Below are positions 3,104 to 57,643 of a stretch of DNA of 64,000 nucleotides, piece by piece. Below the pieces are notes generated by a model. The model was not told where the DNA came from and ran no database searches. It was given only the letters and a program-made list of their open reading frames with translations. Position numbers and translations under genes: made by a program. This DNA is from a phage. Every line of letters begins with the position of its first letter. Position 1 is the first letter of the stretch. The stretch lies in the sequence record PZ809289.1; one strand, 5' to 3'.

Positions 3104-3658
3104 ATGAAACTTTTAAAATATTTGAGTTGGGTACTGTTGGTTCCTCTAGATTTTATCTCTATGGTTCTGGCTGTTATCCTTGCACCATTTGTGGTTCCTT
3201 TCCACAATAAAAAGACCGGTAAATTGCCTTATGGCTTTGATTGGATGATGACATACGATAATCCAATTGACGGTGACAAAGGTCATATTAAACGTTGGGC
3301 TAAAATCAGGAAAATGCCAGGTGGTGTTTATCTCCAGAGAGTAGCCTGGTTATGGCGAAATAAAGCTTATAACTTTGCTTATCATAAACTTGGACGCGAT
3401 TGTAGTTCGGAATTCCATTATCGTGGTAATCCTGACGTAGAATCAGGTTCTCCTGATAAAGCTCATCATGGGTGGCTATGGATGTGGAATGACGACGCCT
3501 GGGGTGTATTTGCTTCAGTTCCTTATCTTAAGGTTGGTGGAATCACATTTTACCTTCGAGTGTACTGTGGCTGGAAGCTTAAAAGTCTTTTGTCTCGTAA
3601 AATCCCTAAGGCTATGTTAGCCTTCCACATAAACCCATTCCGGTTCTACAAGAACTGA
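3104..3658 (+). CDS. membrane protein, unknown function
   Basis: SD AGGAAA; N-terminal hydrophobic segment; flanked on both sides by the same terminator sequence. Confidence 0.6.
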   Translation: MKLLKYLSWVLLVPLDFISMVLAVILAPFVVPFHNKKTGKLPYGFDWMMTYDNPIDGDKGHIKRWAKIRKMPGGVYLQRVAWLWRNKAYNFAYHKLGRDCSSEFHYRGNPDVESGSPDKAHHGWLWMWNDDAWGVFASVPYLKVGGITFYLRVYCGWKLKSLLSRKIPKAMLAFHINPFRFYKN

Positions 3659-52479: not shown

Positions 52480-52801
52480 TTTATCTGATTTAGATAATTT
52501 CGTTAAAGATACCGAAGAGGGTCCTAGTGACCCTCGTTATTATGAGAAATCATTAGATATAATCCGTAAGTCAATGGGTTCTGTTAAGCAGGAAATTATG
52601 CTTACTTTACCCGATGGCACTGCTCACATCGTTTATGTGATGAATATTGTTATTGAGAAAGATGGAAAAGTGTCGGTTGATTTCGGAACACCTTCCGAAG
52701 ACCGAAAAGAAGAGCTGGCGCTTCATGTAGAAAAATGTGTTACAATGCAAATACAAGAAGAACTGGATAAAATTAAATCTAAGAGGTGGTGGAAGTGGTA
52801 G
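52472..52801 (+). CDS. hypothetical protein at gene 40 position
   Basis: 109 aa ORF between uvsX and 41; assigned by synteny only. Confidence 0.45.
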   Translation: MTDLSDLDNFVKDTEEGPSDPRYYEKSLDIIRKSMGSVKQEIMLTLPDGTAHIVYVMNIVIEKDGKVSVDFGTPSEDRKEELALHVEKCVTMQIQEELDKIKSKRWWKW

Positions 52802-54225
52802 AAACTATTTTGGCTCAACTGCTAGGCAATAGTGATTATTTCACTAAGGTCTGGCCTTATATGAATGATTCTTATTTTGACCAGGGTCCTGCAAAGACCC
52901 TTTTCAAAGAAATTAAAAAACATGTCAATGAATATAATGCAGTGCCTTCTAAGAACGCATTGAGCATTGCATTAGATAACAGTACGCTTTCAGAAGTTGA
53001 ACACCAAGGCGCTAAAGAGCTTTTAAGTTCGCTGAATGCCGGACCTGAAGACCAAGAATGGTTGGTTAAAGAGACGGAGAAATACGTTCAGAAAGCAGCG
53101 ATGTATAATGCAACTTCAAAAATCATTGAAATCCAAACTAATGCCGACCTTCCGGTTGAGCAACAAAATAGAAAACTTCCAGGTATTGGTGCTATTCCAG
53201 ATATCATGCGTGATGCATTATCGATTTGTTTCGATTCTGAATTAGGTCATGACTGGATGGATGACTATGAAGAACGATTCAAAAGTTATTCTGATAAAGC
53301 ACGTAAGGTTCCATTCCGTCTTAATATTCTGAATAAGATTACCAAGGGTGGTGCTGAGTTTGGTACTGAAAACGTATTGTTGGCAGGAACAAACGTAGGT
53401 AAGTCTCTTGGTCTTTGTTCATTGGCTGCTGATTACCTTCAATCTGGTTACGATGTTCTTTATATCTCCATGGAGATGGCAGAGGAAGTATGTGCTAAGC
53501 GTATCGATGCCAACCTTCTGGACGTGTCGCTGGATGATATCGATGATGGTCACGTCTCGTGGCCTGAATATAAAGCTAAGATGGATAAATGGCGTTCAAC
53601 TGCTACTTTAGGTCGTTTAAAGATTAAACAGTATCCTACTGGCGGTGCTAATGCCGATACATTCCGTGCATTATTAAACGAATACAAGCTCAAACAAAAC
53701 TTTGTCCCTCAGGTTGTTATCGTTGACTACTTGGCTATCTGTGCATCGTCTCGTACGAAAGTTTTCTCTGAAAACAGTTACGGATTGATTAAGATGGTCG
53801 CCGAAGAACTACGTGGACTTGCAGTAGAGAAGAAATTATTGCTGTGGACAGCAGCCCAGACTACTCGTGGTGCGAACGTTGCAGCCGAAATCGATATGGC
53901 CGATATTGCTGAATCCTTTGGTATTGCACATACTGCAGACTTCATGTTAGGTGTGGTCGAGACAGAAGAATTTGCTCAAATGGGTATGCAGATGGTTAAG
54001 CAGCTTAAATCTCGTTATGGTGATAAGAGCTACTACAACAAATTTAAGATTGGTGTTAAGAAAGGAAATCAACGTTGGTATGAAGTTGAAGACGATTCCA
54101 ACCCAGGTCCAGTGAACACGGTACGTGAGGCTACAGGTGAGATGAATCGCCAAGCCGAGGTCAATCGACAGACGCGTGTTAATAGAAGTGATTTGGACGA
54201 TTTAGCAGCATCTATCAAATTTTAA
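52795..54225 (+). CDS. 41: replicative helicase gp41 (DnaB-like)
   Basis: GTNVGKSLGLCSLAADYLQSGYDVLYISMEMAEE, IVDYL, WTAAQ; GTG start 52795 (MVETIL) inferred from alignment to T4 MVEIIL, alternative GTG 52786. Confidence 0.9.
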   Translation: MVETILAQLLGNSDYFTKVWPYMNDSYFDQGPAKTLFKEIKKHVNEYNAVPSKNALSIALDNSTLSEVEHQGAKELLSSLNAGPEDQEWLVKETEKYVQKAAMYNATSKIIEIQTNADLPVEQQNRKLPGIGAIPDIMRDALSICFDSELGHDWMDDYEERFKSYSDKARKVPFRLNILNKITKGGAEFGTENVLLAGTNVGKSLGLCSLAADYLQSGYDVLYISMEMAEEVCAKRIDANLLDVSLDDIDDGHVSWPEYKAKMDKWRSTATLGRLKIKQYPTGGANADTFRALLNEYKLKQNFVPQVVIVDYLAICASSRTKVFSENSYGLIKMVAEELRGLAVEKKLLLWTAAQTTRGANVAAEIDMADIAESFGIAHTADFMLGVVETEEFAQMGMQMVKQLKSRYGDKSYYNKFKIGVKKGNQRWYEVEDDSNPGPVNTVREATGEMNRQAEVNRQTRVNRSDLDDLAASIKF

Positions 54226-54247
54226 GGAGCTTCGGCTCCTTTTTTGT
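54225..54247 (+). terminator. intrinsic terminator
   Basis: AGGAGC-TTCG-GCTCCT followed by TTTTTT. Confidence 0.65.
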
Positions 54248-54255
54248 TTTTAAGG

Positions 54256-54284
54256 GTTTACATCTCCTGTAGGTGTGATACTAT
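54256..54284 (+). promoter_or_regulatory. early promoter cassette
   Basis: GTTTAC 54256-54261, TACTAT 54279-54284, AGACCTATCAA. Confidence 0.6.
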
Positions 54285-54308
54285 AGACCTATCAACTTGG
54301 AGAACAAA

Positions 54309-54626
54309 ATGAAAACCATCGACTGTAAAGCAGAATATAAAGTGTATTATCACGGAAGTTGTAGTGTTGCTAATATCGGTAATATGCTTTGTCCTCCTGA
54401 GGAGACAGGAGTTCTGTCTGAAACTGGTCGTAAGAAAAACCTAAATCGTGTGTTCTTTACTGAAGATATTGGTTTGGCTAAGATTTATGCTGGACGTGCA
54501 GCTCGTTCAGTGGGAGGAGAACCCCGTCTTTATCGTGTAATTGCTCCGGTAGATGTGGTTTGTTTAAATGATACTAAAGGCGCTACGGTTTATCATGCTG
54601 AATGGGCCTTCTGTGAGGAAATCTAA
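54309..54626 (+). CDS. hypothetical protein
   Basis: ATG 54309 after GGAGAACAAA; 105 aa. Confidence 0.5.
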   Translation: MKTIDCKAEYKVYYHGSCSVANIGNMLCPPEETGVLSETGRKKNLNRVFFTEDIGLAKIYAGRAARSVGGEPRLYRVIAPVDVVCLNDTKGATVYHAEWAFCEEI

Positions 54627-54821
54627 ATGTCCAAATTGACTACGGTAAAATTTGTATGCTGTTTTAATAATGATGATACCACTACCAAAGAAGCTTCAGT
54701 ACCTGAAAATGATATTGTGTGGGTGGCTACTCAATTCGCTGAAGTCAATAACATTCTAGTCAAGGCCTATGTTGATGGCGTAGAAGTTTATGAACATGAT
54801 GCACGTATTAAGGAAATCTAA
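54627..54821 (+). CDS. Dmd-like protein (tandem paralog of dmd)
   Basis: 64 aa; V.F..CF.N......KE......DIVWVATQFAEVNNILVKAYVD pattern parallels adjacent dmd. Confidence 0.6.
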   Translation: MSKLTTVKFVCCFNNDDTTTKEASVPENDIVWVATQFAEVNNILVKAYVDGVEVYEHDARIKEI

Positions 54822-55025
54822 ATGCCTAAATTAGAGAAAGTAGTGTTTATTGGTTGGTTTGAAAATGGTAATATGTTTACCAAAGAAACCGTTCTAGATG
54901 TTAGTGACCAAAATATGATTGAATGGGTTACAGTGCAGTATGCAGAAGTGAATAATGCGCTGGTGAAAGCCTTTGTTGATGACAATAAAGTTTTTGAGTG
55001 TGATTATCGTTCTAACGAAAAATAA
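54822..55025 (+). CDS. dmd: Dmd antitoxin (inhibitor of RnlA/LsoA-type toxins)
   Basis: KVVFIGWFENGNMFTKETV...VQYAEVNNALVKAFVDDNKVFECDYR matches my recollection of T4 Dmd. Confidence 0.75.
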   Translation: MPKLEKVVFIGWFENGNMFTKETVLDVSDQNMIEWVTVQYAEVNNALVKAFVDDNKVFECDYRSNEK

Positions 55026-55085
55026 CAGTTTACATCAAAGGGGTAATGTAGTATATTACCCCTATCAACTACCGAGGAGAACATT

Positions 55086-55379
55086 ATGAAAAAGTTATTA
55101 ATCGCAGCAATCCTTACAGTAGCATCATGTGGCACAGCTCCAGTTACGGCTGGATTGGATAAAGACCTTTGTGAATGGTCTATGACTGCAGACCAAGAAT
55201 CGGTTGAACATCAGATTTATGCCGATATCATGAACATCACTAAACGCGACCGCCCTGATATGGCTAAAGAAGTGTCAGACCAATTAGCTTCAGGTGGTGT
55301 TATGCAATATAACCGGAATTTGTATTGTGATGCCAATTTCGATAACAAAAATATCGTTAAAGAGGTGACAGGTGAATAA
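55086..55379 (+). CDS. secreted lipoprotein-like protein (spackle position)
   Basis: 97 aa; signal peptide with ASCG lipobox-like motif; synteny with T4 sp, not confirmed by sequence. Confidence 0.5.
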   Translation: MKKLLIAAILTVASCGTAPVTAGLDKDLCEWSMTADQESVEHQIYADIMNITKRDRPDMAKEVSDQLASGGVMQYNRNLYCDANFDNKNIVKEVTGE

Positions 55380-55812
55380 GATTAACAGAAATTTAGTTAT
55401 CAAAAAACTTCGTTGTAAAAATCCAAATGCACAAGCATACAGGATGTTTTGGAGCGACGACCACCAATACCTGGGTTATTTTCTTGTTGATAGCGATGAT
55501 CGAATTACAATGGCTCATAAACTTCTTAACAGAGAATTAAACCATTGGCAAGAACTTATCGCGGTGAGGTCTAAATTATTTTCGTGCAATACAATGCACC
55601 AATTGGTTTATTTTTTCGCTGAAGGTATTCCTGACAAGGTTGAGTTTGATGGATTCGAATTTAAAGACATCCTCCCAGACAACGAATTGAACGACCGCGT
55701 TAATATGGACATCCCTAGCAAGTATATCAAAAACAGTCTGTTGAAAATTCTGGAAGCTCCGGTTTATTCAATAGATGACCAGATTTTTAATGCCTTTATG
55801 AATCGAGGTTAA
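55372..55812 (+). CDS. hypothetical protein
   Basis: GTG start 55372 overlapping preceding stop; 146 aa. Confidence 0.45.
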   Translation: MNKINRNLVIKKLRCKNPNAQAYRMFWSDDHQYLGYFLVDSDDRITMAHKLLNRELNHWQELIAVRSKLFSCNTMHQLVYFFAEGIPDKVEFDGFEFKDILPDNELNDRVNMDIPSKYIKNSLLKILEAPVYSIDDQIFNAFMNRG

Positions 55813-55813
55813 T

Positions 55814-56035
55814 ATGTTTGTCTTAACTCAATTCTCTAAAGCGGTGTATAGTTACTCTTGTCAGTGGGAAGTCTTTATCGATTCTCCTTCACCTAAGTAT
55901 GGTGTTTTTGGACGAGTAACTACTCAAGCTTATGTCGCACGGCCGACTAAGCGCCAGCTTCGTAAACTTAAAAAGGCCCATCGCCAACTGATTGAGAGAA
56001 GGGAACAATATGAGTGCAATGTGTACGGGCTCTAA
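55814..56035 (+). CDS. hypothetical basic protein
   Basis: SD GAGG; 73 aa. Confidence 0.45.
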   Translation: MFVLTQFSKAVYSYSCQWEVFIDSPSPKYGVFGRVTTQAYVARPTKRQLRKLKKAHRQLIERREQYECNVYGL

Positions 56036-56417: not shown

Positions 56418-57446
56418 ATGTCATATGTCGATAGAGAATTTGCTGTACGTGCCTTGAATTATCAACCTAAATTCAGACAAGTAACTGGTAGTGATTTTAA
56501 ATTAAACTGTCGTTGTCGTGTATGTGGCGACTCCCTAAAAGATGAGAACAAAGCTCGTTTTTGGGCCTATCCGGCCAATGACGGCTCCGTAATGCTGCAC
56601 TGTTTTAACTGTGACTATTCAGCAGGAATTAAGAAGTATCTATACGAATATGAGCCTGATTTATATCGAGAATATATTCTTGAGAAACATAAAGAGCAAT
56701 CGTTCGGGAGACAAGCTGCACCTAAGGTGGAGATATCAGAAAAGATTAAAGCCAAGATGCCTGTCATCGAAAAGCTTAATTTCTGTGAACGTCTGGATAG
56801 AATGCCAAAGGACCATCCTATTATCAAATATGTGACGTTACGCTGCATTCCTGAAAACAAATGGAACCGGCTGTGGTTTACTAAAGAATGGCCGGCATTG
56901 GTGAACTCTGTCAATCCAGGGACCTATTCTAAAGAAATGCCTGAGCCTCGTTTGGTTATTCCAATTTTCAATAAGAATAAACAAATTGAAAGTTTTCAGG
57001 GTCGAGCCTTACGTAAAGATGCTCCACAAAAATATATTACAATAAAAGCTCATGACCAAGCTACAAAAATATATGGAATGGATACAGTTGACGAACGTCA
57101 GTTGGTGTGGGTAATGGAAGGCCCTATTGACTCTTTGTTTGTTCCGAATGCAATAGCAATTACTGGCGGGTCGTTGGACTTGGCTATGGTTCCATGTAAA
57201 GAAACTCGTGCCTGGGTAATGGACAATGAACCCCGCCATCCTGACACAATTAAGCGTATGCAACGATTAGTTGATGCTGGCGAAAGGGTTCTATTCTGGG
57301 ACAAGGCTCCATGGCCTTCTAAAGATATAAATGATATGATTATGAAAGATAAAGCTGATATAAATGATGTACTGGCATATATGAAAGCTAATATAGCCCA
57401 AGGTTTAATGGCAAAAATGAGACTTTCAAAATATTCTAAAATTTAG
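56418..57446 (+). CDS. 61: DNA primase gp61
   Basis: Zinc ribbon CRCRVCGDS...HCFNC, TOPRIM-like EGPIDS, DNEPRHPD; colinear with T4 gp61. Confidence 0.95.
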   Translation: MSYVDREFAVRALNYQPKFRQVTGSDFKLNCRCRVCGDSLKDENKARFWAYPANDGSVMLHCFNCDYSAGIKKYLYEYEPDLYREYILEKHKEQSFGRQAAPKVEISEKIKAKMPVIEKLNFCERLDRMPKDHPIIKYVTLRCIPENKWNRLWFTKEWPALVNSVNPGTYSKEMPEPRLVIPIFNKNKQIESFQGRALRKDAPQKYITIKAHDQATKIYGMDTVDERQLVWVMEGPIDSLFVPNAIAITGGSLDLAMVPCKETRAWVMDNEPRHPDTIKRMQRLVDAGERVLFWDKAPWPSKDINDMIMKDKADINDVLAYMKANIAQGLMAKMRLSKYSKI

Positions 57447-57643
57447 GCAGGAACTCCGCTAAAGAATCCAATTATGCTTAATACGTGTTCCATTGTAACC
57501 GCTGGTAAAATTATCCCTTGGCTAGCGGCTACAGGGACTACTAGAAGATTCCAAAGGAATACGTCTAGCGCAAGAAAACCTAACATCATTTTCTTGTCTT
57601 TCTTTTCAGCCAATTTCCAGATTTGGTAAAAAATACTGCCCAT
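57443..57643 (-). CDS. small membrane protein on the opposite strand
   Basis: Minus-strand ATG preceded by AGGAGG at 5 nt spacing; 66 aa with hydrophobic helices; convergent with gene 61. Confidence 0.5.
   Translation of the reverse strand: MGSIFYQIWKLAEKKDKKMMLGFLALDVFLWNLLVVPVAASQGIILPAVTMEHVLSIIGFFSGVPA

Follow-up and report, generated by a model that had tools for sequence, protein, structure and literature searches.

Tandem dmd genes in a Dhakavirus, best explained as two stacked allelic lineages

Why would a phage carry two different genes for the same kind of antitoxin? The question is raised by a 64,000-nucleotide (nt) stretch of phage DNA (sequence record PZ809289.1; the whole stretch is called the window here), in which two small genes, dmd-a and dmd-b, stand in tandem between genes 41 and 61. 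Dmd is a β-β-α-β-β protein of ~60 amino acids (aa) and the textbook phage substitute antitoxin: T4 Dmd binds host HEPN endoribonuclease toxins of the RnlA/LsoA type in a groove beside the active site, and, after the short-lived host antitoxin is gone, it keeps them from destroying the phage's middle and late mRNAs. To our knowledge, Dmd specificity has been studied for the T4 protein only, against two toxins. The reading that we favor, to which we assign a probability of roughly 55%, is that two old alleles have been stacked at a gene boundary, that both are working Dmds, and that a wider or more robust range of RnlA-family toxins is the most likely benefit.

The window belongs to a JS98-like T-even coliphage of the genus Dhakavirus. 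Across positions 54200–55500, Escherichia phage KIT01 is its closest relative (96.4% nt identity), and other Dhakaviruses are 92%–96% identical. Both open reading frames (ORFs) are intact and adjacent on the plus strand, where the initial annotation had located them (Table 1), and synteny with KIT01 and JS98 confirmed its placement of the pair between genes 41 and 61, the position expected for a T-even Dmd (WG01 and MX01 share this synteny). The downstream ORF had been taken for Dmd, and this was borne out: dmd-b is the closer relative of T4 Dmd (59% identity by tblastn, compared with 44% for dmd-a), and it aligns end to end with the RB69 and T4 Dmd chains in the PDB (5i8j_A, 3.6e-23; 5hy3_B, 4e-18). 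The same chains were matched by dmd-a (5hy3_B, 1.7e-10; 5i8j_A, 1.5e-09). Both proteins scored above the gathering cut-off of 27 bits for Pfam PF17587 (Dmd), at 48.3 bits for dmd-a and 78.5 bits for dmd-b, and both matched PHROG 2102 "Dmd" (E = 4e-25 and 6e-34, respectively); NCBIfam contains no Dmd model. They are 47% identical to each other over their full length (BLASTP E = 5e-16). The two had been described as equal in length, but they have 64 and 67 residues, the difference being a 3-residue gap ahead of the helix; the conserved helix core is common to both, as claimed.

Failure of the upstream copy to fold like Dmd would have counted against the initial annotation, but structure prediction gave the opposite outcome. 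An AlphaFold2 (AF2) model of dmd-a, computed from a 26-sequence alignment, reached a predicted local distance difference test score (pLDDT) of 92.3 and has the β-β-α-β-β topology (strands 4–12, 18–26, 44–49, and 52–58; helix 27–41). Foldseek superposed it on LsoA-bound T4 Dmd (5hy3_B) with a root-mean-square deviation (rmsd) of 0.7 Å and template modeling (TM) scores of 0.86/0.96, and on 5i8j with an rmsd of 1.7–1.8 Å; its significant PDB neighbors were Dmd chains only. We conclude from homology, and for dmd-a also from the predicted fold, that both ORFs are Dmd-family genes. The family itself is tiny: a profile search of 1.84 billion representatives found ~7 small-protein clusters, and three more matches, which fall in repetitive proteins of great length, look spurious. 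Another candidate relative came to light in some Gapriverviruses, in which a 113-aa ORF directly follows dmd (Escherichia phage vB_EcoM_VR20, positions 3214–3555 of locus L016, and 15 other phage records). Its N-terminal half is weakly Dmd-like (19.1 bits with Pfam Dmd, below the cut-off; 21.9 bits with our own Dmd profile), it has a C-terminal extension of ~45 aa, and existing annotation calls it hypothetical; possibly it represents a third Dmd-type gene that has diverged further.

The two proteins are most alike in the helix and differ most in the hairpin that precedes it. Residues W31 and N40 of T4 Dmd are reportedly needed for LsoA binding. Their equivalents (W32 and N41 in dmd-a) are invariant in both window copies and in all Dmd sequences of our two alignments (A1 and A2), and the helix motif W-V-x-x-Q-F/Y-A-E-V-N is almost the same in dmd-a and its relatives (type A) as in dmd-b and its relatives (type B). 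The motifs GWF (strand 1) and MFTKE (strand 2) are invariant in the aligned T4, RB69, and type-B sequences, and dmd-b has both. In dmd-a they read CCF and TTTKE, and in the WG01-type A protein GHF and TATKE. Type A is the only Dmd in these alignments without the GWF and MF residues, and it also has the 3-residue deletion before the helix; GWF and MFTKE do not formally define the family, as a few distant members (P0152 and P0154) also lack the motif. The CCF subtype is restricted to genomes with the tandem pair, whereas single-copy type A carries GHF. At the C-terminus, dmd-a ends in (K/E)EI, encoded by a gene-boundary repeat described below, and dmd-b ends in NEK.

The initial annotation had called dmd-a a diverged paralog of its neighbor. 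It is a diverged Dmd homolog with the same helix core, but the idea of duplication in place does not hold: the two genes are 62% identical at the nt level and 51% at third codon positions, which are thus near saturation, and their longest identical run is 10 nt. We therefore rejected a recent tandem duplication or segmental amplification, which would have left near-identical units. A different origin emerged from the distribution of the two types among 741 phage records in which a Dmd was found by tblastn with dmd-a. Type A (77%–91% identical to dmd-a) occurs in 23 records, RefSeq duplicates included, and is the sole dmd in 19 of them (for example, WG01, Bp7, QL01, IME08, and LQ5); JS98, MX01, and AnYang have only type B at the same position. 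Because each type is the sole dmd at exactly the same locus in other Dhakaviruses, the pair is best explained as two old allelic lineages, A and B, that stand singly at this locus in most Dhakaviruses and have here been stacked.

Two dmd copies were found in five of the 741 records, and four of these are genuine: KIT01, fDHCT2, 04086, and Salmonella phage ABTNLsp5, all with A upstream of B. The fifth, DCP80 (PQ671644.1), was discarded; it is a scrambled "complete" record with three rIIA genes, two nucleoid-disruption genes, and split terminase pieces, and it has one dmd at the locus, the second being an assembly artifact. With the window, the tandem pair is thus present in five genomes, from Viet Nam, India, China, and elsewhere. 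A scan of IMG/VR with the Dmd alignment gave 14 loci and no further tandem pair. A word-indexed protein search with dmd-a returned only four clusters, all of Dhakavirus, indicating that type A is rare. MX01 and KIT01 each encode a Dmd with exactly the amino-acid sequence of dmd-b; the dmd-a proteins of KIT01 and the window differ at 6 of 64 residues (91% identity).

How the two alleles came to stand side by side is suggested by the junctions between the genes. The small genes of this unit end in (G/A)AGGAAATCTAA, followed directly by ATG, and this 14–15-nt boundary carries the Shine-Dalgarno sequence of the next gene, the stop codon, and the next start codon, while encoding a C-terminal (E/K)EI that is common to type A, to JS98-type B, and to the 105-aa product of the first gene of the unit, an ORF resembling ADP-ribosyltransferases (ART-like). 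In every related locus, the ART-like orf, type A, and JS98-type B end in this boundary. In the window, the exact 14-mer AGGAAATCTAAATG has exactly two perfect copies, both at dmd gene starts. The order in WG01, which has only A, is ART-like orf, A, orf46, 61.4, and that in JS98, which has only B, is ART-like orf, B, orf46, 61.4, orf46 being a 46-aa ORF next downstream of dmd. If the boundary at the end of A crossed over with the one at the start of B, the expected order would be ART-like orf, A, B, orf46, 61.4, which is exactly that seen in fDHCT2 and ABTNLsp5; 04086 fits as far as it is annotated. In the window and KIT01, type B has an MX01-type 3′ end (...CDYRSNEK), which leads straight into a promoter/hairpin cassette and sp, and orf46 and 61.4 are absent.

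Two other patterns fit this route. WG01 type A and JS98 type B agree at 28 of their final 30 nt, compared with 62% identity overall between the window copies, which is consistent with repeated exchange at this 3′ edge. In a neighbor-joining tree, the type-A copies from tandem genomes group in one clade, as if stacking had happened once and then spread. A laboratory precedent comes from T4, which rearranges this locus through microhomology (PMC9391042). The A and B lineages would thus normally replace one another at the dmd locus, and the stacked pair would have arisen when a phage with A and a phage with B recombined unequally at the boundary (G/A)AGGAAATCTAA|ATG, a route that we infer from the junctions, the gene orders, and the clade. 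As for orf46 itself, which lies between dmd and 61.4 in many Dhakaviruses, the copies directly after dmd in JS98, WG01, fDHCT2, and ABTNLsp5 (loci L003, L005, L002, and L007) are cysteine-rich (MEEFECVVCGCS...CLDC...), and the product is probably a small zinc-binding protein.

In dmd-a, W11 and M17-F18 (T4 numbering) have been lost, although all the other aligned Dmds keep them, and this could mean that dmd-a is a decaying, nonfunctional remnant. We consider this extremely improbable. The gene is intact and has a Shine-Dalgarno sequence in all five tandem loci (the four database phages and the window), its predicted fold is confident, and type A serves as the only dmd in the single-copy records described above. 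Pairwise ratios of nonsynonymous to synonymous substitution rates (dN/dS) within type A are mostly 0.04–0.5, and type A is therefore under purifying selection.

The restriction of the CCF subtype to tandem genomes would suit a shift of dmd-a to a new target, with B covering RnlA and LsoA and CCF-type A inhibiting another defense nuclease or a host factor. Between the window and KIT01, dmd-a has 8 nonsynonymous changes and 1 synonymous change, and dmd-b has no nt differences. Likewise, the terminal branches leading to the window, KIT01, and 04086 carry 12 nonsynonymous changes and 1 synonymous change by parsimony on the neighbor-joining tree, although these counts are small and not significant, and recombination confounds the assignment of changes to branches. 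They hint at relaxed or diversifying change in type A after stacking. The core helix and the predicted fold of dmd-a are unchanged, however, and we regard a wholly new target as improbable.

The gene upstream of dmd-a suggests a quite different account, in which the variation in Dmd would answer to a partner within the phage. The 105-aa ORF matched PHROG 2110 (1.7e-60) and, weakly, Pfam Arr-ms (E = 0.029); its AF2 model (pLDDT 85) has a minimal ADP-ribosyltransferase (ART) fold, and the top Foldseek matches were Arr, the RNA 2′-phosphotransferase KptA/Tpt1, and PARP. In the passage of Iyer et al. (2022; PMC9503650) that concerns this gene, an ART-like gene and Dmd are predicted by comparative genomics to be a phage-encoded type II toxin-antitoxin pair, and Dmd is also placed beside a second ART family in Klebsiella phages. 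On this basis the ART-like protein could be a toxin and dmd-a its antitoxin, which would leave dmd-b free for host toxins. The ART-fold gene lies immediately upstream of dmd-a, which it abuts through a TAA-ATG junction, and the two would be coupled in translation; such tight packing is, however, typical of T-even early genes.

Co-occurrence and co-variation, which a dedicated pair should show, were not found. The ART-like protein is 99%–100% identical across Dhakavirus loci whether A, B, or both come next, although A and B are only 47% identical, and differences in its gene among Dhakaviruses amount to 0–2 nonsynonymous and 5–16 synonymous changes. Homologs with 62%–99% identity are found in T4-like phages of Escherichia, Pantoea, Serratia, Erwinia, Acinetobacter, and Proteus, and no Dmd lies within 2 kb of those from Acinetobacter, Proteus, and Pantoea phages that are ~70%–75% identical. 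Conversely, T4-type dmd loci have no ART-like gene within 3 kb. Because the two genes neither co-vary nor obligately co-occur, variation in Dmd does not track its ART-like neighbor, which points to an external target in the host. We do not favor the toxin-antitoxin reading, which strikes us as distinctly improbable.

If the targets lie in the host, there is no shortage of them. Of 5426 complete E. coli genomes, 363 have canonical rnlA (at least 99% nt identity), and a further 72 have a chromosomal variant of the RnlA family with 72% nt identity. LsoA and a further variant are found on small mobilizable plasmids of E. coli and Salmonella, and these plasmid LsoA-type toxins share ~20% protein identity with RnlA over ~77% of its length (tblastn). 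Several deeply diverged targets, at least three RnlA-family toxins, thus circulate in the hosts. On RnlAB-positive K-12, dmd is conditionally essential for T4 (bioRxiv 10.1101/2025.11.20.689424). In the stacked-allele reading, both dmd genes would encode working Dmd-family members, type B keeping the canonical surface and type A bringing an altered β1-β2 hairpin, and the benefit would be a wider or sturdier set of RnlA-family toxin variants neutralized. Both copies probably act as inhibitors of RnlA/LsoA-type toxins, each by binding them, and it is plausible, as the initial annotation had suggested, that the specificities of A and B are complementary.

Several observations weigh against this reading. 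T4 Dmd alone neutralizes both RnlA and LsoA (PMC5086642), reportedly by occupying the active-site groove (PMC5086642 and PMC8266594); because these toxins are only ~20% identical, a second copy is not obviously needed for breadth. The W/N helix is nearly the same in A and B, which suggests the same class of target and perhaps the same targets. Most Dhakaviruses have one dmd, with 4 genuine tandems among the 741 Dmd-bearing records, and stacking could be a neutral by-product of recombination. The parsimony counts for tandem type A (28 nonsynonymous and 22 synonymous) and single-copy type A (11 and 19), themselves small and affected by recombination, do not differ significantly (Fisher p = 0.11). 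The match of the AF2 model to Dmd is partly built in, because the alignment consists of Dmd homologs and Dmd structures are in the training data. Finally, it is from sequence that we infer toxin inhibition by type-A Dmd, and by any Dhakavirus Dmd.

The first three of these points would equally suit a redundant pair, in which both copies inhibit the same toxins and the tandem is a neutral or dosage-raising by-product of recombination at the repeated gene boundary, with no division of labor. T4 readily rearranges its dmd-tifA locus through microhomology in laboratory evolution, and the amplification raises dosage (Srikant, Guegler and Laub, 2022; PMC9391042). Dosage is normally gained through identical repeats, however, whereas dmd-a and dmd-b are 62% identical at the nt level, and both copies are under purifying selection in the five tandem genomes. 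Moreover, because type A has lost residues that are invariant in the rest of the aligned family, identical binding behavior is unlikely. We therefore treat redundancy as a possible but doubtful explanation and prefer two stacked alleles that together widen or strengthen toxin neutralization. An extension of this preferred reading, which we put forward as speculative and rather unlikely, is that the boundary (G/A)AGGAAATCTAA|ATG serves as a joint for swapping and stacking counter-defense alleles, and that CCF-type A, once stacked, was freed to specialize on a toxin that canonical Dmd cannot block, either a diverged RnlA-family variant or a different nuclease.

The pair appears to be expressed with the ART-like orf. 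On the plus strand, the order is uvsX, gene 40, gene 41, the 105-aa ORF, dmd-a, dmd-b, sp, four small ORFs, and gene 61. Because a terminator-like hairpin, promoter-like sites, and the gene junctions bound them (Table 1), the ART-like orf, dmd-a, and dmd-b look like one early transcription unit, led by its own promoter, in which the three genes would be coupled in translation through TAA-ATG junctions; the Shine-Dalgarno sequence of each dmd gene lies 8 nt upstream of its ATG. The promoter cassettes at 54248–54315 and 55023–55092 have three blocks in common (GTTTACATC, CCTATCAACT, and GGAGAACAnnATGAAAA), and we take them to resemble the mobile promoter/stem-loop cassettes of T4-type phages.

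Table 1. Features in and around the dmd locus, numbered from the first nucleotide of the window
Feature	Position	Strand	Basis or description
Gene 41	52786-54225	+	Synteny with the annotated KIT01 and JS98 records
Terminator-like hairpin and T-run just after gene 41	54224-54250	+	7-bp GC-rich stem AAGGAGCTTCGGCTCCTT, then TTTTGTTTTT; upstream limit of the unit
Early (sigma-70-type) promoter-like site	54257-54284	+	TTTACA-16-TACTAT with upstream TG; would drive the ART-like orf, dmd-a, and dmd-b
ART-like orf, 105 aa, first gene of the unit, not a Dmd	54309-54626	+	PHROG 2110; AF2/Foldseek
Gene-boundary repeat, copy 1, AGGAAATCTAAATG	54616-54629	+	Shine-Dalgarno sequence, stop of the ART-like orf, start of dmd-a
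dmd-a, type-A Dmd homolog, 64 aa, CCF subtype	54627-54821	+	Family profiles, AF2 model, dN/dS below 1 across the clade
Gene-boundary repeat, copy 2, AGGAAATCTAAATG	54811-54824	+	Shine-Dalgarno sequence, stop of dmd-a, start of dmd-b; putative recombination joint
dmd-b, type-B Dmd, 67 aa	54822-55025	+	PDB, Pfam, and PHROG matches
Second early-promoter-like site	55029-55057	+	TTTACA-17-TATATT; marks the change from the dmd unit to the sp (spackle) unit
11-bp hairpin overlapping the second promoter-like site	55039-55063	+	Inverted repeat I3; -14.5 kcal/mol, z = -2.3
sp (spackle)	55086-55379	+	Gene order
146-aa ORF	55372-55812	+	PHROG 8539
73-aa ORF	55814-56035	+	Pfam DUF7279
Gene 61	56418-57446	+	Synteny with the annotated KIT01 and JS98 records
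66-aa ORF between gene 61 and gene 56	57443-57643	-	

Three further ORFs near the pair deserve mention. The 146-aa ORF matches a PHROG to which no function is assigned and lies roughly at the position of T4 61.2 (adfA); in its last 15 residues there is a weak similarity to the C-terminal end of AdfA, an anti-DarT factor (E = 0.007, under the Pfam cut-off). The 73-aa ORF matches DUF7279 with 68.6 bits, as does the TifA-like gp61.4 of WG01, although only a basic PTKRQxR core is common to the two proteins. Because the window has no 61.4 gene at its usual place after dmd, the 73-aa ORF may be a distant relative of the TifA family. The product of the 66-aa ORF has hydrophobic stretches; KIT01, fDHCT2, and MX01 list it as a hypothetical protein.

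What is new here is the allele-stacking view and the unusual hairpin of type A; the Dmd family was known, and the pair is annotated in close relatives. KIT01 labels both genes "discriminator of mRNA degradation" and fDHCT2 names them dmd_2 and dmd_1, so the pair is already in public annotation, and a literature search on double dmd copies or Dhakavirus dmd found no discussion of it. Phages that carry either or both of the 47%-identical alleles form a natural comparison set for the Dmd residues that set toxin range, and they could reveal whether stacked alleles let a phage infect a wider range of hosts among strains that differ in their RnlA-family systems. Dhakaviruses of this kind come largely from poultry, and the close relative LQ5 has been evaluated against avian pathogenic E. 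coli (APEC) infection in chickens. More generally, the conserved gene boundary suggests a simple route by which T-even phages could shuffle small anti-defense genes. Current understanding would change only if the two copies differ in function; if stacking was indeed followed by specialization, the locus would be a natural case of an anti-toxin repertoire widened by combining alleles, not by duplication.

The known systems closest to the window pair include the other tandem genomes. The KIT01 pair (BBI57383/BBI57382) and the fDHCT2 pair have the gene order ART-like orf, A, B and the junction found in the window, and 04086 and ABTNLsp5 have the same arrangement but are only partly annotated as dmd. 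In fDHCT2, 04086, and ABTNLsp5, unlike in the window, type B has a JS98-type C-terminus, and orf46 and 61.4 are still present downstream. The predicted ART-Dmd pair shows the same adjacency, in Escherichia, Shigella, and Salmonella phages, and the passage that describes it does not mention double Dmd copies (PMC9503650).

T4 Dmd (gp61.5; PDB 5HY3 chain B; PF17587) resembles the window pair in family, size, predicted fold, genome position, and early promoter. T4, however, has a single dmd and no upstream ART-like gene, its Dmd keeps the GWF and MF residues that dmd-a replaces, and dmd-a and dmd-b each have a C-terminal extension relative to it. The closest solved relative of dmd-b is RB69 Dmd (PDB 5I8J), and the JS98 record, in its annotation of JS98 orf34, indicates that RB69 also has a homolog of the ART-like ORF (orf040c); RB69 differs in having a single dmd, of 64 aa, with another loop ahead of the helix. 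The laboratory amplification of dmd-tifA in T4 (PMC9391042) is like the window in its locus, a counter-defense island, in its tandem layout, and in its use of short homology. It consists, however, of identical repeats selected for tifA dosage, whereas the window appears to hold old, 47%-identical alleles that were joined once and have been stably inherited.

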